A stretch of 64,000 bases of DNA from Nitrososphaeria archaeon (GCA_029775855.1 JARVJZ010000003.1:96001-160000), one strand, 5' to 3'. Shown: positions 40,514 through 51,780, counted from the first letter of the stretch. Numbers and translations are program-made. Notes: generated by a model from the sequence alone, not told the origin.

Positions 40514-41644
40514 TTGGCTACATATAGAGTTGCTGTAATACCTGGAGATGGTGTAGGGCCAGAAGTTATACGCGAAGGCAAGAAGGTATTAGATGCGGTG
40601 AGTGAAGTAGACTCTTTTGAAATAGAGTGGGTAGAGTACCCTTTCGGCGCAGAGTATTACTTAAAGACAGGCAAGACGCTTGACGAAGATTCACTTAAAG
40701 AACTCAAGCGGTATAAGGCGATTTATCTCGGTGCCGTAGGAGATCCGAGGGTTCCTCCAGGGGTATTAGAGCTAGGGATTCTACTCAAGCTACGCTTCTA
40801 TATGGATGAATATGTGAACCTTAGACCAGTTAAGCTTTTTGAAGGCGTGGATACCCCTCTTAGAAATAAAAGTGAAAAGGATATCTGCTTTGATGTAGTT
40901 AGAGAGAACACCGAAGACTTTTACATCGGTGTAGGGGGAAGAGTAGCGAAGGTCCCTATCAGACAACAGCATAACCTTATGCGGGAGCTCTATAACCTTA
41001 AGTTCAATCTGGATATCGAGGGAGATGCGGATGAAATAGCCTATCAATTAGGCGTCATAAGTCGAAGGGGTGCTGAGCGTGTCATAAGATACGCTTTTGA
41101 GCTTGCTGAGAGAAAGAAGAAGCGAAAGGTATCTTCAGTTGATAAAGCGAATGTCTTGACAGAAGTGTATGGTCTTTGGCGAGAAGTCTTTGCTGAAGTC
41201 TCTAAATGTTATCCACATATTGAGACAGAGTATATGTTTGTAGACGCTGCTGCCATGTGGTTCGTCAAAAACCCAGAATGGTTCCAAGTAGTCGTTACCC
41301 CAAATCTCTTTGGAGACATCTTAACAGATCTAGGTGCGATGATACAAGGAGGCCTAGGTGTTGCACCGGGAGCAAATATAAACCCTTTCGGCACTTCAAC
41401 CTTTGAACCCATACACGGCTCAGCCCCAAAGTATAAGGGGCAGAACAAGATTAACCCTATTGCGACGATTCTCGCTGGCGCTCTTCTTCTTGAAAACCTT
41501 GGGTTATACAGCTCTGCGGCTAAAGTTGAGGATGCGGTTAGAGCGGTGCTGAGGGAGGGTAAGGTTCGCACCTACGATTTAGGCGGTTCTTCAACCACAG
41601 AAGAAGTAGGTGATGCGGTTGCAGAAAAGCTTAGGAGTTCTTAG
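40514..41644 (+). CDS. leuB: 3-isopropylmalate dehydrogenase (ICDH/IPMDH family)
   Basis: [37 protein letters not shown]. Confidence 0.88.
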
Positions 41645-42023
41645 GTCTCCAACCCAAAGCCAAGCTACCCCCTATAACTCCGAGTATCAACCCTAGCAGG
41701 AAGCCGCCGCCTCCAAATATGCTCAGTATAGATAAGACGAGGATAGCTGCTCCCCAACCACTACTCCCAGCGGGTCGATAATAGAGCATCAGTGCTGCAA
41801 ATATGGTGAGAGCGCCTAACACTAAGCCGACTACGCTCAACGCGAACATCAATCTTCCGAGGGCTAAAACGATACTACCAGATAAACCGCGTGGCGTCAT
41901 AACATAATCTAAGGTGTTAGTTAAAGCTTGGGTAGATAAACCAACTACTAACCCATTCGCGAAGATCAATGCACCAGCGGCTAGGGTGAGGATGAATGCG
42001 GTGTAGGGTTTTTCACCAGACAT
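41631..42023 (-). CDS. small membrane protein (DUF6114-like)
   Basis: Multiple TM helices, [15 protein letters not shown]. Confidence 0.7.
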
Positions 42024-42051: not shown

Positions 42052-43575
42052 TTAAGATATCTTAGTGTTGTTGTTCATCTTCTTTTGCTTGAGTAAAATT
42101 TTGTTCATCCCCTTTATAAGCGCTTCAACACTAGCCACAACGATGTCATCACCCATGCCTCTGGCTGAAGATATGTTGCCCATGCTGTCCCCAACTTTTA
42201 CTATAACCTCTGCCATAGCGTCTGAGCCGCCGCTTAAAGCCTCAAGCCTATACTCCTTCAAAAAGATCTTCGCAACCTTCTCAGTCACGCTTTGAATAGC
42301 CTTAACAGCTGCGTCAACAGGCCCTACTCCAGTAGCTGAAGCGACATAAATCCTACCATCAAGGTCGAGCTTAACCGAAGCAGTAGGCACTACATTAATA
42401 CCAGTCATAACAGCAAAATCGAGCAGCTTTAGAACCTTTTCATTCTCTTCAGGAACCTTAAGGACAGAACGCGCTATAGCTTCTACATCTGAGTCTGTTA
42501 GTGTTTTACCTTTATCCCCCAGCTCCTTAACTTTGCTGACTATTAACGCAAGCTGCTCATCGTTAGGTGATAACCCCATTTCTTGGAGCTGAGCCCTTAT
42601 GCCGTGGCTACCAGCGTGCTTGCCGGCTTGAAGCCACCTTGTTCTACCAACTACTTCTGGGTCTAGGGGTTCGTATGTAAAGGGTAGAGATAGTATGCCG
42701 TGTGTATGTATACCAGACTCATGTCCAAATGCGTTATCACCTACAATCGCCTTGTTAGGTTGCACAATTACCCCAGTTAGCTTAGAGACCAGTCTGCTCG
42801 TCTCGTAGATGAGTTTCGTGTTGATTTTAGTCTTCTTCATGTAAAGGTTGTGGAGAGCCATCACAACCTCCTCTAGCGAAGCGTTGCCGGCCCTTTCACC
42901 AAGTCCGTTTACAGTTACATGCACCTCTGATGCCCCAGCTTCAACAGCAGCGATGGAGTTTGCTACAGCCAGTCCAAAGTCGTTATGGCAGTGAACAGCG
43001 ATAGGTACATCAACAACGCTCTTCACCTCCCTAACTAACATAGCCATCCTAGACGGTGTTGAGACCCCAACAGTATCAGGAATATCGAGCCTATCAGCAC
43101 CAGCATCCACTACCGCCCTATAGAACTCCTTTAGAACTTGAGGCTCTGTTCTAGTAGCATCTTCAGCAGAAAACTCAACTTTAACGCCGTGCTTCTTCGC
43201 ATACTCAACACCTTGAATAGCCTTCTCAAGAGCTTGTTGTCTGCTCATCTTAAGTTTATAGTTGAGATGAATGTCTGAGGTTGCAATAAATAGATGAATG
43301 CAATTCACATCGGAGCTTAGTGCAGCATCTATATCGCTCTTCTCCACCCTAGCGAGTCCACAGACTTCAGCGGTCAACCCCTCTTTAGCAATCATTCTCA
43401 CAGCTTCAGCCTCGCCTTTTGATGCTACTGGAAAGCCTGCTTCAATGGTATCGACACCTAACTTATCTAGCTGCCTCGCAATTTCTAGTTTATCCTCTGA
43501 TGTCAATGTTACACCTGGTGTCTGTTCGCCGTCTCTGAGTGTGGTGTCAAATATCCTTATGTACTCATCTACCAA
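42052..43575 (-). CDS. leuA: 2-isopropylmalate synthase
   Basis: [30 protein letters not shown], regulatory GVGPVDA. Confidence 0.9.
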
Positions 43576-43589
43576 CCGCTAAACACCAT

Positions 43590-44081
43590 CTAGCCTCTTG
43601 CTATTGCTGTTATGCCCGTTCGTGAAATATCTCTGATTCCGAAGGATGTTAATATCTTTATGAAGGCATCTATCTTATCGGGGGCACCAGTAACTTCAAT
43701 CGTCATGGTTTCTTCACCTACATCAACAACTTTACCTCTAAAGATTTGGACATAATTCATTAAATCTGCACGAGCCTTCTGGTCGGATGCATTAACCTTA
43801 ATCAAAGCAAGTTCGCGCACAACCGAATTCTTAGCTTCAAGCCTCACTATCTTGATAACATCTATAAGCTTAGCCAACTGCTTCACAAGCTGCTCAACTG
43901 TCGATTCATCACCATTAACCACGATAGTCATCTTAGATAAGCCAGGCTGCTCAATCGGACCAACAGTTATACTTTCAATGTTAAAGCCTCTTCGTCTAAA
44001 CATGTTTGAAGCTTTAAAGAGTACTCCAGGCTTGTTCTCGACTATCGTTGATAATATGTAGCTTTCACTCAATTTTTTCAC
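43590..44081 (-). CDS. ilvN: acetolactate synthase small subunit
   Basis: ENKPGVL, RRGFNIESI, RELALIKV, SRTG. Confidence 0.95.
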   Translation of the reverse strand: MKKLSESYILSTIVENKPGVLFKASNMFRRRGFNIESITVGPIEQPGLSKMTIVVNGDESTVEQLVKQLAKLIDVIKIVRLEAKNSVVRELALIKVNASDQKARADLMNYVQIFRGKVVDVGEETMTIEVTGAPDKIDAFIKILTSFGIRDISRTGITAIARG

Positions 44082-45775
44082 CCATTCGGACCATAGAGTA
44101 TGTCCTTCAAACCTGCACCTGGTGGGACGAAGGGGTATACATCCTCTTCAGGATCTATTGGTACATCTATTACGGTTGCAACTTCGCTGAGTAGTGCATG
44201 GTTAAATGCCTTTTCGAATTCTTCAAGTGTATGCGCTCTTATACCTACTGCACCATATGATTCGGCTAATCTTACAAAGTCTGGGGTGCTTCCAAATTTC
44301 ACTGAAGAATATCTTCTGTTGTAGAAGATTCTTTGCCACTGCTCTACCATACCAAGAGACCTATTGTCCATTATCACAACTATAACAGGTATCCCCTCCT
44401 CCACACATACAGCCAGAGAGTTCTCAGTCATACAAAAGCTACCATCACCAGCCAAGTCGACCACAGGAACATCTGGTTTTGCAACTTTAGCGCCTATTGA
44501 GGCTGGGAAACCGAAGCCCATTGTGCCCAATCCTGTAGAAGTTATCCAAGTCCTAGGTCTCACTACTTTGTAATGTATCTCAGCGAACATTTGATGTTTT
44601 CCAACTTCAGTAGCAAGTATGCCTTCAGGAGGGAGCAGTTGCCTAATTTTCTTTATAATTTGAACGCTCATTAGTCTGTTTGAGCCGTCTAACTTAGCAT
44701 TCCTCCTAACCTCTTCCCTAACTTCTTCTACGCGCCTCAGCCAAGGTGAGTCGTTTCTCTGCTCGACTATCTTACTCTTAAGCCTCTCATATATCTGCTC
44801 TAGAGTTACCTTGGCATCTCCGACTATAGGAAGATGAACACGCTTATTCTTACCTATTTCAGAAGGATCAATATCTATATGTATGATCTTAGCATCTGGG
44901 CAAAAGGCGTCGAACCTGCCAGTAGAGCGGTCTGAGAAGCGAACCCCCACAGAGAGCAGACAGTCTGTCTCAAGCACAATCCTGTTAGCTTCAGCAGTTC
45001 CGTGCATACCAATCGGCCCAAGCGCAAGAGGATGATTCTCTGGAAAAGCACCCTTACCTATTAATGTTGTAACAACAGGAGCCATTAGAAGCTCAGCGAT
45101 CTTTCTGAACGGCTCGTGCGCATTCGAAAGATTTACTCCACCACCACCCCAAAGCACAGGCCTTTCAGCAGATAGAAGAAGGTCAACCGCTTTTTCCACC
45201 TGCAGGGGATGTGGTGTGACAACAGGCCTATATCCTCTTATCGTAACCTTATCTGGAAAGATCATATTTGCCTTCTCTTGCTGAACATCCTTTGGTATAT
45301 CAACGAGGACAGGGCCGGGTCTGCCGGTTGAAGCTATGTAGAATGCTTTCTTTATGTCAGAAGGTATCTCCTCTGCCCTCATTGGTTGAAATGTGTACTT
45401 TGTTATAGCTGTGGTTATCCCTATTATATCGACTTCTTGGAACGCATCTTTGCCTATCATGGCTCTTGGGACCTGACCTGTTATGGCTACTATGGGTGAA
45501 GAGTCCATGTAGGCTGTTGCTATTCCTGTCACCAAGTTGGTTGCACCTGGGCCAGAAGTTGCCATGCATACTCCGACTTTGCCGCTTGCTCTAGCGTATC
45601 CATCAGCCATATGTGCTGCTGACTGCTCGTGTCTGCATAAGATAGATCTTATGCCACTGCTGTAGAGAGCATCGTAGATAGGTAGGTTGGCTCCACCTGG
45701 TATACCAAACACAACAGAGACATTTTCTCGTTTAAGGGCTTCTATAACCGCTTCTGCACCGATCATCTCAACCAT
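44078..45775 (-). CDS. ilvB: acetolactate synthase large subunit
   Basis: RHEQSAAHMADGYAR, TSGPGATN, GDGSF ThDP motif. Confidence 0.96.
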   Translation of the reverse strand: MVEMIGAEAVIEALKRENVSVVFGIPGGANLPIYDALYSSGIRSILCRHEQSAAHMADGYARASGKVGVCMATSGPGATNLVTGIATAYMDSSPIVAITGQVPRAMIGKDAFQEVDIIGITTAITKYTFQPMRAEEIPSDIKKAFYIASTGRPGPVLVDIPKDVQQEKANMIFPDKVTIRGYRPVVTPHPLQVEKAVDLLLSAERPVLWGGGGVNLSNAHEPFRKIAELLMAPVVTTLIGKGAFPENHPLALGPIGMHGTAEANRIVLETDCLLSVGVRFSDRSTGRFDAFCPDAKIIHIDIDPSEIGKNKRVHLPIVGDAKVTLEQIYERLKSKIVEQRNDSPWLRRVEEVREEVRRNAKLDGSNRLMSVQIIKKIRQLLPPEGILATEVGKHQMFAEIHYKVVRPRTWITSTGLGTMGFGFPASIGAKVAKPDVPVVDLAGDGSFCMTENSLAVCVEEGIPVIVVIMDNRSLGMVEQWQRIFYNRRYSSVKFGSTPDFVRLAESYGAVGIRAHTLEEFEKAFNHALLSEVATVIDVPIDPEEDVYPFVPPGAGLKDILYGPNG

Positions 45776-45833
45776 AATTCACACACTCCATATGCATACC
45801 AACCCACACCTTTGAATATTATAGATGTGGGCT

Positions 45834-45914
45834 CTAAGATACAATCAACAATACGAGCTGCACAGCTAATAATTTGCTACGCACTTCCTTCGAAGTTTGC
45901 AGCTCGCTTATCAA
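45834..45914 (-). CDS. putative leader peptide of ilvB-ilvN-leuA operon (MISELQTSKEVRSKLLAVQLVLLIVS)
   Basis: 26-codon uORF (TTG..TAG), 9 of last 12 codons Leu/Val/Ile; 28 nt from TATA box; 58 nt upstream of ilvB ATG. Confidence 0.65.
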   Translation of the reverse strand: MISELQTSKEVRSKLLAVQLVLLIVS

Positions 45915-45941
45915 GCCCAGCAGTAGCTACCTTATACCTTG

Positions 45942-45956
45942 TTAATAAGTTTTCTC
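45942..45956 (-). promoter_or_regulatory. BRE/TATA promoter for leader-ilvB transcript
   Basis: GAGAAAAC-TTATTAA on minus strand; back-to-back with ilvD TATA (45966-45974). Confidence 0.55.
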
Positions 45957-46001
45957 AAAAGCAAATATATTAAAGGTTGTGGAATATAGGTTAGGGTCTA
46001 T

Positions 46002-47669
46002 TTGAGAAGCAGTAAAATTAAGGATGGTGTTGATAGAGCGCCTCATAGAAGTCTTCTAAAGGCTGTGGGTGTCAAGGATGAAGACATGCAGAAGCCCTTC
46101 ATAGGAATAGCAAACTCGTATACGGACATTGTGCCTGGGCATATTCATTTAAACGAGTTAGCTAAAGTCGTTAAGCAAGCTGTAAGGGAGGCTGGCGGCG
46201 TTCCATTCGAATTTAACACCATAGCTGTGGATGACGGGATAGCTATGGGTCATCTTGGTATGAGATATTCTCTACCATCAAGAGAGTTGATAGCAGACTC
46301 TGTGGAGACGATGGTTCAAGCACACTGCTTTGACGCACTAATCTGCATAGCGAGCTGCGACAAAATAGTTCCAGGTATGCTCTTAGCCGCAGTCAGACTC
46401 AACATTCCCACAATCTTTCTTAGTGGCGGCCCTATGCCAGCAGGTAGGTTAAAAGATGGTAGGGCAATAGACTTCTCAACCGTCTACGAATCAGTAGGCG
46501 CATACTACAAAGGTCAAATCACACTAGAAGCGCTTAAGGAGATCGAGGGACTCGCGTGCCCAACTTGCGGCTCCTGCGCTGGACTATTCACAGCCAACTC
46601 AATGAACTGCGTCTGCGAAGCGTTAGGAATAGCACTACCGGGCAACGGCACCGCGCTAGCAACATCTCCAGAGCGGTTAGATCTAGCACGCAAAGTTGGG
46701 AGAAGCATCTTGAAGCTTTGGGAGTTAGATCTTAAGCCTCTTGATATAATAACTGATAAGTCGATTGATAACGCATTCGCCTTAGATCTAGCTATAGGCG
46801 GCTCGACAAATACTGTTTTGCATCTTCTTGCTTTAGCTAAAGAGGCTGGCATCGACTACTCCTTAAAAAGAGTTGATGAGCTTTCAAGTAAGGTTCCTCA
46901 TCTATGTAAGCTGAGCCCAGCATCAAACTTTCATCTTGAAGACTTTGCGGCTGCTGGAGGTGTGGGTGCGGTGCTTAAGGAGTTGAGTAAGCTCGATGAT
47001 GTAGTTGATCTGAAGCAGATTACAGTTACCACAAAGACTCTTGGAGAAAATATCCGTGACTCTATCATTCGTGATGCTCAAGTCATAAGAACTGTTGAGC
47101 AACCATACAGCAGAATTGGTGGAATAGCCGTCTTATTCGGAAATTTAGCGCCCGAAGGTTCTGTAGTTAAAGTTGGTGCGGTAGACCCAGCAATTAAACA
47201 GCATAGGGGTGAAGCGGTTGTGTTTAACTCAGAAGATGAAGCCCTTGAAGGTATCAAAGAAGGTAAAGTCGATAAAGGCGATGTGGTCGTGATTAGATAT
47301 GAGGGGCCTAAAGGTGGACCTGGTATGCCTGAAATGCTCGCACCTACATCTATGATTGTTGGCATGGGGTTAGGCAAGGATGTTGCCTTAATCACTGATG
47401 GGCGCTTCTCAGGAGCTACTAGAGGAATATGTGTGGGACATGTCTCACCAGAGGCTGCTGCTGGAGGACCAATAGCACTAATAGAAGACGGCGACACCAT
47501 AAAGATAGATTTAGAGAAGAAGTCTATCACAGTAGAGCTTTCAAATGAGGAAATGGACGAGCGTAGAGCAAATTGGAAACCTATTGAACCACGCTTTAAG
47601 TCAGGCTACTTAAGAAGATACTCTATGCTGGTAGGCTCAGCGAGTAGAGGCGCAACGCTTACCTCCTAA
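46002..47669 (+). CDS. ilvD: dihydroxy-acid dehydratase
   Basis: [36 protein letters not shown]. Confidence 0.96.
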
Positions 47670-47717
47670 TTCAGAGAAAACCATAAGAAGACCAAGATTG
47701 AACAATATAGAAGAAAG

Positions 47718-48365
47718 ATGGATGCTGCAAGCTTCATTATCAAAGTGCGTAAAGAACTTAGCGAAGAGAACAAAAAGATACTAGAGCACCCTTTCATAAA
47801 AGATGCAGAAGCGGGGAAGCTTTGTGAAGACAAGATTAAGTGCTTCATTACACAACAAGACTATATCATATCCCACGACCTACGCTCTCTAGCATTAATG
47901 CTTACAAGAAGCAAACACCAAGATGAAACCGATTTCTTCCATCCTCTAATCCAAGGAGATATAGAGGCGTTAAAAAAGCTACATATTTTTGCCGAGGAGC
48001 TGGGTTTAAAGATAGAAGATTTTACCACACAACAACTAATACCTGAAGCAGTATCATACACACACTACCTTGCTTGGCTTGCCCTCTACGCTAATGCAGG
48101 TGAACAAGCCGCTGCCCTAATAGTCAACCTTCCAGTCTGGGGAGAAGCGTGCAGAAGATTTGGCTCAGCCTTAAAAGAGAAGTATGGATACAAGAAGCTT
48201 GACTTCTTTGAACTCTTCTTACAACCTTTTGACGCGGTAGAGGCTGCAGCATTCAAGGTCATAAATAGGTATATTGAAAGATTTAGTATAACGATGGAGC
48301 GGTGCGTGAAGATGATTCAACGCTACGAGCTGATGTTCTGGGATAGCATCTACAGACTTGTGTAA
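47718..48365 (+). CDS. TenA/THI-4 family protein (Cys-less type)
   Basis: HPFI, QQDYI, VNLPVWG, YELMFWD. Confidence 0.82.
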   Translation: MDAASFIIKVRKELSEENKKILEHPFIKDAEAGKLCEDKIKCFITQQDYIISHDLRSLALMLTRSKHQDETDFFHPLIQGDIEALKKLHIFAEELGLKIEDFTTQQLIPEAVSYTHYLAWLALYANAGEQAAALIVNLPVWGEACRRFGSALKEKYGYKKLDFFELFLQPFDAVEAAAFKVINRYIERFSITMERCVKMIQRYELMFWDSIYRLV

Positions 48366-48367
48366 AA

Positions 48368-49039
48368 TTGATGCACAGAGCCTTTACCAATTACCTTTGG
48401 TCTTCAATAAAAAACATCTTCGACGCGATACTTAGACACCCCTTCATAAAAGGCCTTGTCAACGGCAACCTAGAGGAAGCACGATTCAAGTTCTATGTTA
48501 TACAAGACAGCCTATATTTAAGTGAATACGCCAGAGTCTTAAGCTTAGCTGCAGCTAAAGCGCCTTCAGACGATTGGTTTCTCGCCTTCAACGAGCACGC
48601 TAAATTAGCGCTTGTTGCTGAAAGATCTCTTCACGAAAGTTTCTTTAAAGAATGGGGTTTAAGCGAAGAGCAGATTAACGCTATACCAATGATGCCAACA
48701 AACCTAGCCTACACCTCATATCTTAGAGCCGTAGCCCTCTCAGCACCCTTCCACGATACATTAGCGGCGCTACTGCCATGCTACTGGATATACTGGGAAG
48801 TAGGTAAAGAATTGGAGAAGCAAGGCTCTAAGAACCCCATTTATCAGAGGTGGATAGAAACATATTCTTCAAAAGAGTTTGGCGGCATATGTGAAGTCGT
48901 TATAGAGATCGTTGAGCAAGCGTCAAAAAGCCTAACAGTAGAGCAGAAGGAAAACATGAAAAAGCACTTCACCACCACGAGTAGATACGAATACCTATTC
49001 TGGGATGCAAGCTACAATATGGAGCATTGGCCCCTCTAA
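48368..49039 (+). CDS. tenA: thiaminase II (TenA)
   Basis: HPFI, YVIQDSLYL, LLPCYWIY catalytic Cys, YEYLFWD. Confidence 0.9.
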   Translation: MMHRAFTNYLWSSIKNIFDAILRHPFIKGLVNGNLEEARFKFYVIQDSLYLSEYARVLSLAAAKAPSDDWFLAFNEHAKLALVAERSLHESFFKEWGLSEEQINAIPMMPTNLAYTSYLRAVALSAPFHDTLAALLPCYWIYWEVGKELEKQGSKNPIYQRWIETYSSKEFGGICEVVIEIVEQASKSLTVEQKENMKKHFTTTSRYEYLFWDASYNMEHWPL

Positions 49040-49115
49040 AACTCTATACATCAAATATAGCGTTAAACTTATATTAGAAGTGTAGAGAGAGTAAGGCTCA
49101 ACAGAGGTAAACCAA

Positions 49116-50711
49116 ATCGATTCAAAGATCGATGTGCTCGACACAACGCTAAGGGACGGCGCTCAAACCTACGGTATATCATTCACCCTCCAAGATAAAC
49201 TAAGTATAACACAAAGGCTCGACGAGCTAGGTATAAAGTATATTGAAGGAGGCTGGCCTGCATCAAACCCAAAAGACTCAGAATTCTTCAACATAGCAAA
49301 GACACTCAAACTAAAACACTCGGAGATAGTCGCCTTCACCAGCACAAAAAAGAAGAACACACAACCAGACAAAGACTTAAACCTCAAGGCAGTCATATCC
49401 TCAGGCGTAAAGAGCGTTGTAGTCTTTGGAAAAGCTTGGAACCTACATGTTAACCACGTGCTGAAGATAAGCCTAGAAGATAACCTCGACATAATAAAAG
49501 AATCGATTCTCTTTCTTAAAAGTAAGGGGTTAAATGTTATCTTCGACGCTGAACACTACTTTGACGGATACAAAGCAGACCAAACTTATGCGCTTAAAGT
49601 CCTACAAGTAGCTGAAGAAGCTGGAGCAGACACGCTCGTTTTATGCGACACTAACGGAGGAACCCTACCACACGAAGTCCATACAATAGTGCTCAGAACG
49701 AAGGAGAAGGTAAGGAGCAAGCTAGGAATACACGCGCACAACGACGCAGGGTTGGCTGTAGCTAACACAATTATAGCTGTATCTGCTGGTGTAAGGCACA
49801 TACAAGGCACAATAAACGGATTAGGGGAAAGATGTGGTAATGCTGACCTATGCCAAATACTACCCACACTACATTTTAAAATGGGCTTCACCATCCTAGA
49901 ATCACATAAACCACGAGACCAGCAGCTAAAAGGGTTAACCGCCCTATCAGAATATGTATATGAACTACTCAACCTCCAAGGAGTAGCTAATCAACCCTAT
50001 GTAGGCAAAAACGCCTTCAAGCATAAAGCCGGTGTGCATATCGACGCCATAAAAAAAGTGTATAAAGCATACGAACATATCGACCCATCACTAATAGGCA
50101 ATGAAAGAGGAATCTCTATTTCCGAGCTCTCCGGCAGAGCAAGCATCGTAAGCTTGGCTTCTGAGCTCAACCTTGACCTAAGCAAAGACCATAGCTTAGT
50201 TAACGAAGTTCTAAAAGAAATTAAGGAGCTTGAAGCAAAAGGATACCACTTCGAAAACGCTAAGGCAAGTGCACACCTCATCCTACTTAAAAAAGCTGGG
50301 CTACTAGAAACCCCATTCAAATTGGTCTCTTGGAAAGCATCGTCTAAAATGGATGGTAAAAATCGATGCTCAGCCGAAGTAACAGTTGAATTTTCTGGTG
50401 AAATCCATAAAGAAAAGGCAACGGGCGTAGGTCCAGTCCACGCACTTGATGTAGCTTTTAGGCAAGCGATCCTACGCAAATATCCACAGCTTTCAAACAC
50501 TAAGCTCATCAACTACAAAGTTACGGTAGTCGACAGCATAAAAGCTACAGCATCTGTAGTAAGAGTCTTCATAGAGTTTGAAGACAATGGTAAAAGATGG
50601 GCAACAACTTCAGTCTCGTCAAATATAATCGAGGCGAGCATAAAAGCCTTAGCTGAAGGATACACCTACAAACTGCTACTAGACAAATCGCATAAGAAAC
50701 TAAACACATAG
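49116..50711 (+). CDS. cimA: citramalate synthase (probable non-canonical ATC start at 49116; first standard start GTG 49134)
   Basis: DTTLRDGAQ, EGGWPASNPKD, FDAEHYFDG, LCDTNGG, GERCGNAD, SELSGRAS. Confidence 0.88.
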   Translation: MDSKIDVLDTTLRDGAQTYGISFTLQDKLSITQRLDELGIKYIEGGWPASNPKDSEFFNIAKTLKLKHSEIVAFTSTKKKNTQPDKDLNLKAVISSGVKSVVVFGKAWNLHVNHVLKISLEDNLDIIKESILFLKSKGLNVIFDAEHYFDGYKADQTYALKVLQVAEEAGADTLVLCDTNGGTLPHEVHTIVLRTKEKVRSKLGIHAHNDAGLAVANTIIAVSAGVRHIQGTINGLGERCGNADLCQILPTLHFKMGFTILESHKPRDQQLKGLTALSEYVYELLNLQGVANQPYVGKNAFKHKAGVHIDAIKKVYKAYEHIDPSLIGNERGISISELSGRASIVSLASELNLDLSKDHSLVNEVLKEIKELEAKGYHFENAKASAHLILLKKAGLLETPFKLVSWKASSKMDGKNRCSAEVTVEFSGEIHKEKATGVGPVHALDVAFRQAILRKYPQLSNTKLINYKVTVVDSIKATASVVRVFIEFEDNGKRWATTSVSSNIIEASIKALAEGYTYKLLLDKSHKKLNT

Positions 50712-50778
50712 ATTAACATATGACAGAAGGCTTTTAACCAATCAACTAGTAGGCTATAGGCAACAAGGAGGTAGACAA

Positions 50779-51780
50779 TTGGCGAAAATATGGTATGATA
50801 AAGACACCACTCTAGACGCTCTAAAGCAAGAGGTAATAGCTGTAATCGGATACGGAAGCCAAGGCTCAGCACAAGCCTCCAACTTAAAAGATTCAGGATT
50901 AAATGTGATAGTGGGGCTAAGAGAAGAAGGCGCAAGCTGGAACAAAGCGATTAGAGACGGGCATAAAGTATCCAAAATCAAAAAAGCTGTAGAGGAAGCA
51001 GACATAATCCACATACTAGTCCCAGACATGATCCAACAAACACTCTACGAAAAGGAAATAGCACCAACCTTAAGAAAAGGACAAGCCCTAAGCTTCTCAC
51101 ACGGCGCAGCCATACATTGGGGCTGGATCAAACCACCAAACTGGGTAGATGTAATAATGCTAGCGCCGAAATCACCAGGGCAAAGAGTCAGAGAGCTCTA
51201 CCTCGAAGGATTCGGTACACCAGCACTAGTAGCTGTGCACCAAGACTACTCTAAAAAAGCTTGGCCTAGAATCCTAGGGTTAGCGAAGGGTGTTGGCTGC
51301 ACACGAGCCGGTGTAATTGAGACCACATTTAAAGAGGAGGTTGAAACCGATTGGTTCGGTGAGCAAGTGGATCTATGTGGAGGTGTTGATAGGCTTATCC
51401 GAACTGCCTTTGAGGTTTTGGTGGAGAACGGCTATCAGCCTGAAGTAGCCTACTTTGAATGCTTGCACGAGTTAAAGCTGATTGTAGATCTTATCCAAAG
51501 ATATGGGATAAGTGGTATGTATAAGAGGGTGAGTGAGACAGCACGCTACGGCGGATTGACTAGAGGCGGCTTAGTGATAGATCAGCAGACCAAACGCAAG
51601 ATGCAAACTATACTCGACGAAATACGCTCAGGCAAATTCGCAGAAGAGTGGTATAGAGTCTACGCGAAAGAAGGACCAGCATCATTCAACAAATATCTCG
51701 ATGAGCTTCAAAAGCATCCCATAGAGCAGGTTGGGCTTAAACTAAGACGAATGATGTGGGCAGAAGGCGAAGTCAGCTGA
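50779..51780 (+). CDS. ilvC: ketol-acid reductoisomerase
   Basis: GYGSQG, APKSPG, ETDWFGEQVDLCGG, YFECLHE. Confidence 0.96.
   Translation: MAKIWYDKDTTLDALKQEVIAVIGYGSQGSAQASNLKDSGLNVIVGLREEGASWNKAIRDGHKVSKIKKAVEEADIIHILVPDMIQQTLYEKEIAPTLRKGQALSFSHGAAIHWGWIKPPNWVDVIMLAPKSPGQRVRELYLEGFGTPALVAVHQDYSKKAWPRILGLAKGVGCTRAGVIETTFKEEVETDWFGEQVDLCGGVDRLIRTAFEVLVENGYQPEVAYFECLHELKLIVDLIQRYGISGMYKRVSETARYGGLTRGGLVIDQQTKRKMQTILDEIRSGKFAEEWYRVYAKEGPASFNKYLDELQKHPIEQVGLKLRRMMWAEGEVS

Follow-up and report, generated by a model that had tools for sequence, protein, structure and literature searches.

The window analysed here, a stretch of 64,000 nucleotides (nt) from a Nitrososphaeria archaeon (GCA_029775855.1 JARVJZ010000003.1:96001-160000), carries on its minus strand an ilvB-ilvN-leuA unit for the synthesis of branched-chain amino acids, and a 26-codon open reading frame (ORF) lies between the promoter of this unit and ilvB. 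The ORF, whose C-terminal end is rich in leucine (L), valine (V), and isoleucine (I), probably encodes a leader peptide through which ribosome stalling senses these three amino acids. Short ORFs of the same build precede ilvB in many other archaea; taken at the level of sequence comparison, the system is a new, archaeal variant of leader-peptide control that extends far beyond one genome. The complete chain of events set out below, which includes a co-transcriptional output, is proposed more tentatively, at a likelihood that falls somewhat short of even.

The Leader ORF in the Window

The leader ORF (45834..45914, minus strand) runs from a TTG at 45914 to a TAG stop (45836-45834) and encodes the peptide MISELQTSKEVRSKLLAVQLVLLIVS. 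Leucine, isoleucine, and valine make up 12 of its 26 residues and 9 of the 12 at its C-terminal end. Codons 15-25 (45840..45872), which read LLAVQLVLLIV, form an L/V/I run that, from the window sequence and the tails of the relatives' peptides, is presumed to hold the sensor codons. A GTG at 45884 is in frame within the ORF, and a gap of 58 nt separates the stop from the ilvB ATG (45775). These features had been listed in a preliminary description of the window, and a recount recovers each of them. The promoter that it placed ahead of the ORF is likewise present (45942..45956, minus strand): a purine-rich GAGAAAA, resembling a B recognition element (BRE), is followed by the TATA-like CTTATTAA (45949-45942), with 27 nt between this box and the TTG, or 35 nt when counted from the first base of the box to the start codon. 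As also claimed there, the divergent ilvD appears to be leaderless; its TTG lies about 29 nt past a ATATATTAA box, both within 45961-46004 on the plus strand.

Judged by the TATA distance, which is what places its start, the leader ORF of the window would itself be leaderless or nearly so. Close to ilvB, a Shine-Dalgarno-like GGAGTG (45784..45789, minus strand) is found 8 nt 5' of the ATG, consistent with translation of ilvB from inside a longer transcript. The TTG of the leader is preserved in two loci of the same genus, L002 and L003, and the second codon of L002 is ATG. The peptide MISELQTSKEVRSKLLAVQLVLLIVS has no match in Pfam and is absent from a collection of 15 billion proteins.

A second mini-ORF of 9 codons (MHMECVNYG; window 45768-45797, minus strand) begins 3' of the hairpin P2 described below and ends in a TGA that overlaps the region of the ilvB start; it is also open in L002 and L003, whose sequences are nearly identical here, so that this is little informative.

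Occurrence Upstream of ilvB and Specificity for ilvB

To score an upstream region, all stop-to-stop frames with 8 codons or more and a stop no farther than 200 nt upstream of the gene start were considered, and the highest count of L, I, and V among the final 12 codons of any one frame was taken. By this measure the ilvB upstream region of the window scores 9. Among the 1213 ORFs of at least 150 amino acids (aa) in the same genome, a score of at least 9 is reached by 6, ilvB included, and a score of at least 8 by 27; the other five upstream regions scoring at least 9 appear to be neighbouring coding ends or AT-rich noise.

Within the order to which the window belongs, 21 of 30 ilvB loci, representing 13 of 17 families, score at least 8, and 13 of the 30 score at least 9. 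The same threshold of 8 is reached by 4 of ten further Nitrosopumilaceae-like loci, by 6 of 16 named Nitrososphaeria records, and by 14 of the 24 loci that represent other orders of the class (consolidated table), where families f21, f24, f25, and f29 are clear carriers. Three of 11 other archaeal ilvB-relative records also scored high, an Archaeoglobus, a member of the Archaeoglobaceae, and a metagenome-assembled genome of the DHVE2 group; the three initial high scorers are included again, as L137-L139, in the counts for the Archaeoglobi (15 of 31 loci at 8 or above) and for the DHVE2 class (2 of 14). Four more loci of the DHVE2 class (L169-L172), which read ...LVPILVVLGVLVDLRILRP, score 6-7. 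In 24 other Thermoproteota families only 3 of 59 loci score at least 8, and among these hits only family f47 looks real: L204 ends ...SLVIVVILK and has a stop-abutting hairpin, and its sister L206 has the same build. None of 46 bacterial ilvB loci scores 8 or more. The element is therefore broader than had been held in the preliminary description, since it is found also in Archaeoglobi and in Thermoplasmatota-like genomes.

The form of the region varies with the group. In the Archaeoglobi (L138-L168), apparently leaderless, L/V/I-rich leaders stand 11-31 nt ahead of ilvB and often end ...LLVE, ...VVLF, or ...VVVQ. In some Thermoplasmatota-like genomes (DHVE2 class: L137, L169-L172), a similar ORF stands ahead of a large hairpin and a T tract. 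Several Nitrosopumilaceae-like loci (L026, L129, L131-L136, L214) have a near-invariant box, AACACATTAAAATTATGGAG, just 5' of ilvB and 20-30 nt past the leader stop. The ATG of this box is in the ilvB frame, about 8-10 codons upstream of the aligned start; the box could mark the true start, within a conserved region for initiation, or be a regulatory site.

The L/V/I ORF ahead of ilvB is not a product of chance. When other ORFs of at least 150 aa from the same loci serve as a within-locus control, a score of at least 8 is seen in 2 of 58 (same order), 1 of 69 (other orders), and 0 of 88 (Archaeoglobi), as against 21 of 30, 16 of 24, and 15 of 31, respectively, for ilvB. For 19 of the 30 same-order loci, no more than 2 of 100 dinucleotide shuffles score as high as the real sequence. 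Because related genomes are not independent, all these results stand as counts, with no P values attached; yet the peptides differ almost wholly between families. A scan of the window's own genome for single-amino-acid enrichment and for short ORFs with a hairpin turned up no credible leader for His, Trp, Thr, Phe, or Cys, and the ilvB leader ranks 4th of 491 by hairpin energy in the scan for short ORFs with a hairpin. In two Archaeoglobi, trpE is operon-internal.

Conserved Build of the Leader

Carriers share one order of elements: a TATA box, about 30-40 nt, an in-frame ATG, an ORF of 14-32 codons, a stop, a hairpin, a Shine-Dalgarno site, and ilvB. The TATA box reads (T/C)TTATTAA or TTTATAA in the Nitrososphaeria and AAAAATATTTAAA in the Archaeoglobi, and its distance to the start codon (30-40 nt, counted from the first base of the box) suggests a leaderless or near-leaderless start. 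The ilvB Shine-Dalgarno-like site is GAGGTG, GGAGG, or GGGGTGG in most relatives. Between families the peptide sequence drifts freely; what is retained is the C-terminal L/V/I run, the promoter distance, the frame, and the hairpin that abuts the stop.

The frame of the run relative to the promoter is strongly biased. In the 43 Nitrososphaeria loci scoring at least 8, an ATG located 28-43 nt 3' of a TATA-like match shares the L/V/I frame in 27 cases, as opposed to 0 cases for frame +1 and 1 case for frame +2. No ATG stands at the set distance in the remaining 16 of the 43, which include the window, with its TTG start, and L016-L018, whose TTTATAATT is missed by the pattern. In the Archaeoglobi, 21 of 21 are in frame and none is out of frame.

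The peptides are 14-32 aa long, with a median of 21. In 46 distinct tails, which, it should be kept in mind, were selected by their L/I/V count, the fraction of L, I, or V is 0.46 at the last residue; it is then 0.96, 0.93, 0.78, 0.91, 0.78, 0.80, 0.72, and 0.65 at positions -2 to -9, and 0.2-0.3 beyond -13. Over the last ten residues of these tails, L accounts for 0.35, V for 0.29, and I for 0.11, with F and A at 0.02 each, M at 0.002, and W at 0. The run is broken by S, P, E, G, and D, and also by K and Q. This scarcity of F, A, M, and W, together with the interrupting residues, is unlike a membrane helix.

Near its C-terminal end, the run repeatedly contains an acidic residue, as in ...LLLV(D/E)LVL (Nitrosopumilaceae-like), ...LLVE (Archaeoglobi), and ...VVLLD (f4). 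It could reflect either a constraint from RNA pairing or an effect of the nascent peptide.

RNA Structures P1 and P2

The leader ORF is accompanied by two RNA structures that the preliminary description did not contain. P2 (45801..45833, minus strand) is a hairpin directly 3' of the stop codon, with a stem of 11 base pairs (bp; 45833-45823 with 45811-45801) and an 11-nt loop. In the window it has a predicted energy of -15.7 kcal/mol and a z score of -3.67, and 0 of 200 shuffles fold as well. Among carriers, the 45 nt past the stop fold with z < -2 in 19 of 39 loci (mean z -1.87). The position of the hairpin is fixed: wherever a hairpin past the stop reaches -10 kcal/mol or lower, pairing begins between -3 and +5 nt relative to the end of the stop codon (25 of 25 loci). 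The stem sequences are unrelated between loci, and an alignment of 27 post-stop segments with MAFFT and RNAalifold gave no consensus structure. As the stems cannot be aligned in sequence, reliance is placed on per-sequence folds, on shuffles, and on position. From the end of P2 to the ilvB start there are 13-33 nt, and in many loci the Shine-Dalgarno site is found 0-20 nt past the P2 3' end.

The P2 loop holds a TATAATA (45823-45817), which had been named earlier as a possible promoter of ilvB lying downstream of the ORF. It was rejected as such; the heptamer sits within the hairpin loop, and the same-genus loci L002 and L003 do not share it.

P1 pairs the 5'-most 17 nt of the ORF, among them the start codon (45898..45914, minus strand), with a strand inside the L/V/I run, codons 18-23 (45845..45862, minus strand). 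The pairing is predicted in both the minimum-energy and the centroid fold, and the whole leader folds at -45.0 kcal/mol (z -2.88). P1-like stems of different sequence are present in other families and in the Archaeoglobi, where L151, L155, L162, and L167, for example, have a stem of 12-14 bp that begins at the first base of the ATG. More generally, the duplex formed by the last 36 nt of the ORF with the preceding 70 nt has z < -2 in 17 of 42 loci.

Two further features of the stop region were noted. Most leaders end in TAA, and the hairpin that comes next very frequently opens its 5' arm with (A)GCC or GCG immediately past the stop, even though the stems are otherwise unrelated. In family f24 (L116-L118), a hairpin with a T-rich tail lies inside the leader ORF, across L/V codons, and the leader stop overlaps the Shine-Dalgarno site of ilvB (TAGGGAGGTGA); this geometry is unlike that of the window and hints at translational coupling.

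Proposed Mechanism

In the proposed mechanism, transcription would start about 25-30 nt past the CTTATTAA box, which would put the 5' end of the mRNA at or just before the leader start codon, and a first ribosome would load there in the course of transcription. When the polymerase has passed the L/V/I run, this run would pair with the 5' end and its start codon to form P1, after which few later ribosomes would load. With charged Leu, Val, and Ile tRNAs plentiful, the ribosome would reach the stop and leave, P1 and P2 would fold, and expression of ilvB would be damped. If any of the three were scarce, the ribosome would stall on the last L/V/I codons, P2 would be held open, and the operon would be expressed.

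The geometry of the leader is compatible with this scheme. A stalled ribosome reaches about 12-14 nt past its A-site codon, as is known from footprints, and with a stall at codons -1 to -3 the leading edge, about 12-14 nt downstream, would extend into the 5' arm of P2. The positions held most strictly to L, V, or I (-2 and -3) are those whose stalled ribosome would cover the first bases of this arm. The constant feature of the leaders is a presumably translated L/V/I run that ends at the stop, as expected of a sensor of charged Leu, Val, and Ile tRNAs.

Damping would be co-transcriptional, by termination or pausing at or just after P2, where an oligo-U tract stands in many relatives. Runs of four or more T are present in 12 of 21 Archaeoglobi spacers, compared with 6.0 +/- 1.8 in shuffles, and 0 of 1000 shuffles reach 12; in L125, L018, and L138 the hairpin is followed by T5-T6 (T6 in L125 and L138). 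Since P1 hides a start codon at the very 5' end, it suits a single decision made by a pioneer ribosome, and for this reason a co-transcriptional block is favoured.

Evidence Against the Mechanism and Alternative Explanations

A number of observations weigh against this mechanism. The 5' arm of P2 would be covered even by a ribosome that pauses at the stop codon, which means that the scheme requires fast release, and the leader of the window opens with TTG, which is unusual for a leaderless start. Carriage is uneven as well. The ORF is not seen in 4 of the 17 same-order families (f2, f9, f11, and f15, of which f15 and f9 are Nitrososphaeraceae-like); in the other orders, family f26 is mostly without it, as is the single f28 locus. 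A comparison of orthologous leaders had been suggested as a check on the leader peptide, and its outcome supports the leader: in related Nitrososphaeria the short ORF, the L/V/I run, the promoter distance, the frame, and the hairpin are kept. A limit to this support is that 0 of 5 loci labelled Bathyarchaeia score 8 or more. In AT-rich Nitrosopumilaceae-like loci, P1 and P2 are weak or absent, although the L/V/I ORF is kept there.

The signals for an effect on transcription are also uneven. The 8 nt past P2 of the window contain just 2 T, and thus no U tract; across 25 loci, the 8 nt after the hairpin contain at least 5 T in 3 and at least 4 T in 6. A scan of 36-56 kb of the window for bacterial-type terminators returned 18 sites where 16.4 were expected, which is no enrichment. 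Oligo-T is regarded as the termination signal of archaeal RNA polymerase, which is not known to need a hairpin there. By inspection, with suboptimal folds not exhaustively searched, no antiterminator that would exclude P2 was found, P1 and P2 being separate in the minimum-energy and centroid folds. Of the attenuation-like control that had been put forward for the window, the leader peptide is supported by the comparison; as to its output, the hairpin of the window lacks a U tract, and neither an antiterminator nor sequestration of the Shine-Dalgarno site was found. A sediment metatranscriptome (X1) has short, near-identical contigs in ilvN, ilvB, and ilvD, none of which spans 45543-46113, so that it is silent on the leader; three other metatranscriptome runs add nothing on it. 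Finally, in Streptomyces coelicolor, where the ilvB leader is similar, replacing the candidate regulatory codons is described as having had no effect (PMC1262725); architecture alone is no proof of function.

The same sensor of L, V, and I stalling might instead act on translation or at another post-transcriptional level. Access to the ilvB Shine-Dalgarno site, or the stability of the mRNA, would then be affected by P2 and by pairings in which the pyrimidine-rich last Leu codons take part, and a stalled ribosome would open these structures. This is unlikely overall, but it is an alternative with some weight. The Shine-Dalgarno site is close behind P2 in many loci (0-20 nt) and is itself contained in the P2 3' arm of L025; the last CUU/CUC codons pair with GAGGTG in some Archaeoglobi folds, for example in L138 and L166; the window's P2 has no U tract; and a precedent is provided by the poly-cysteine leaderless short ORFs of mycobacteria (bioRxiv 10.1101/834739). 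Constrained partition-function folding, with the ribosome footprint masked at the end of the run, speaks to this point. The mean predicted accessibility of the stretch between the Shine-Dalgarno site and the AUG is 0.45 without and 0.48 with masking for 44 Nitrososphaeria loci (a rise of at least 0.15 in 8, a fall of that size in 5), and 0.40 and 0.49, respectively, for 15 Archaeoglobi; in the window itself the values are 0.54 and 0.49. There is no systematic rise, and a model of Shine-Dalgarno sequestration, the kind of control known from erm leaders, is thus unsupported by predicted accessibility. In addition, P1 sequesters the leader's own start, which is a better fit to a single co-transcriptional decision than to steady-state control.

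Explanations that dispense with sensing by translation fare less well. It is improbable that the element is untranslated, consisting either of RNA stems whose G/U-rich strand merely reads as L/V/I or of a DNA palindrome bound by a regulator, with the loop TATAATA as the promoter in the window. P1 and P2 are significant structures on their own, and the TATA-like heptamer lies about 25 nt before an ATG at 45797. However, such an element would not account for the frame counts (27 versus 0 and 1; 21 versus 0) or for a stop codon fixed at the base of P2; the L/V/I run is retained in Nitrosopumilaceae where P1 and P2 are weak; stem sequences that differ wholly between families are a poor fit to a protein-binding DNA site; and TATAATA is missing in L002 and L003. 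That the ORF encodes a small hydrophobic peptide with an independent role, for instance a membrane- or enzyme-associated one, co-expressed with ilvB, is more improbable still. The C-terminus is indeed hydrophobic, and small membrane proteins are common and often unannotated. Yet the hydrophobic run is only about 8-10 residues long in peptides of 14-32 aa, there is a shortage of F, A, M, and W, and the run is interspersed with D, E, K, Q, and P. Furthermore, no sequence is conserved between families, Pfam gives no match, and the peptide is tied to ilvB alone across three archaeal phyla. The idea of a chance ORF with no function, to which the shortness of the ORF and its TTG start might point, has all the comparative counts against it and can be given hardly any credence.

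Relation to Known Systems

Leader-peptide attenuation is a textbook bacterial mechanism, and coupling between the ribosome and RNA polymerase has been seen by microscopy in archaea. The statement in the preliminary description that ribosome-mediated attenuation is not established in archaea agrees with the full texts searched, which contain no archaeal leader-peptide attenuator, although a mention in older or subscription sources is possible. In the relevant sections of a review of coupling (PMC7858274), archaea are mentioned only for transcription-translation coupling itself, and those of a ribosome-profiling paper on Haloferax (PMC7261190) treat archaeal upstream ORFs in general terms only.

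The closest known systems are the ilvB leaders of Actinobacteria, namely that of Corynebacterium glutamicum ilvBNC and candidates in Mycobacterium and Streptomyces. They too have a short ORF with an I/V/L run that overlaps or abuts a hairpin, with ilvB as the first gene and the order ilvB-ilvN. They differ in belonging to another domain of life and in that no sequence similarity to them was found; here the promoter is of the TATA/BRE type. The actinobacterial hairpins are followed by poly-U, whereas that of the window has no U tract, and no antiterminator was found for it. The C. glutamicum leader peptide is reportedly made without a ribosome binding site and hence leaderless, to go by the title of a report by Morbach et al. 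from 2000. An account of Actinobacteria describes short ORFs with I/V/L runs overlapping terminator hairpins ahead of ilvB (PMC1262725). For C. glutamicum ilvBNC, a later account describes the terminator as proven and presents a three-hairpin model of terminator, antiterminator, and anti-antiterminator (PMC11857589).

The enterobacterial ilvL, ivbL, and leuL leaders are alike only in logic, in that a short upstream ORF carries a run of codons for the amino acids that the operon produces. In those leaders, which possess a Shine-Dalgarno site of their own, the regulatory codons stand mid-peptide in region 1 of a four-segment switch that includes a Rho-independent terminator. In contrast, the run described here ends at the stop, a single hairpin abuts that stop, and the ORF is predicted to be leaderless. 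A scan of 45500-46300 against Rfam at a permissive threshold gave only three chance-level matches (E 5-5.8), all to unrelated families, and no match to a Leu, Thr, His, or Trp leader.

Two other systems share parts of the design. The Cys attenuators of mycobacteria are described as having a leaderless, sensory short ORF as first cistron, in which ribosomes stalled in a Cys tract block an RNA structure that acts on a ribosome binding site (bioRxiv 10.1101/834739). The leaderless sensory ORF is the point of likeness; the amino acid is another, the hosts are bacteria, and no such sequestration is predicted here. The tnaC leader of the E. coli tna operon is similar in geometry, since its sensor codons adjoin the stop, but differs in sensing free tryptophan and in blocking Rho. 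In tnaC, a ribosome held at the end of the leader masks the RNA past the stop and so blocks Rho, free tryptophan being sensed through the nascent peptide. To invoke an archaeal counterpart to Rho, such as the termination factor aCPSF1/FttA, would be pure conjecture.

With the ORF ahead of ilvB read as a leader peptide that senses Leu, Val, and Ile through ribosome stalling, a wider proposal is slightly more likely than not, in which ribosome-mediated amino-acid attenuation would be old and widespread in Archaea, with a leaderless leader peptide controlling ilvB in most orders of the Nitrososphaeria, in the Archaeoglobi, and in some Thermoplasmatota. Its form, unlike the enterobacterial one, would comprise sensor codons that extend as far as the stop, one hairpin or oligo-U tract abutting it, and a stem that hides the 5'-terminal start so that only a pioneer ribosome is read. 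If the proposal is true, Archaea would have their first described leader-peptide attenuator, ribosomes would serve as amino-acid sensors in this domain, and transcription-translation coupling would be used for regulation with an RNA polymerase of the eukaryotic type. It would likewise provide a sequence-defined system for the question of how a hairpin or oligo-U tract beside a stalled ribosome affects the archaeal polymerase or translation initiation. As the element is found in cultivated groups (ammonia-oxidising Nitrosopumilaceae and Archaeoglobus), it is directly testable. There is also a rule for annotation to be drawn, namely that a small gene ahead of ilvB is missed.

Gene Neighbourhood and Organism

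The unit downstream of the leader starts with ilvB (acetolactate synthase large subunit; 44078..45775, minus strand; TIGR00118, 772 bits, cut-off 538). It is followed by ilvN for the small subunit, which overlaps the ilvB stop (43590..44081, minus strand; NF008864, 205 bits), and by leuA for 2-isopropylmalate synthase (42052..43575, minus strand; NF002085, 694 bits). A DUF6114 ORF of 130 aa (41631-42023, minus strand), 3' of leuA, is apparently the last gene of the unit. On the plus strand, a divergent unit is headed by ilvD (46002-47669, TTG start) and contains genes for citramalate synthase (49134-50711) and ilvC (50779-51780). The two divergent units jointly carry most of the pathway, and the short ORF is present only at the ilvB unit; ilvC, ilvD, and the remaining genes of the plus-strand unit (46002-51780) have no leader ORF.

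The genome comprises 1.5 Mb in 6 contigs and is 98% complete. By ilvB, the named relatives are Nitrososphaeraceae, Nitrosopumilus, Nitrosarchaeum, Nitrosotenuis, and similar organisms. Archaeal amoA is absent from 3 of 3 genomes of the window's genus (G000, G002, and G003) and is present in two families of the same order (f13 and f15). Given a genus without amoA, the organism is probably a member of the Nitrososphaeria that does not oxidise ammonia.

Between ilvD and the citramalate synthase gene, the plus-strand unit also contains two TenA-like (thiaminase II-like) genes, which are odd members of a unit for branched-chain amino acids.

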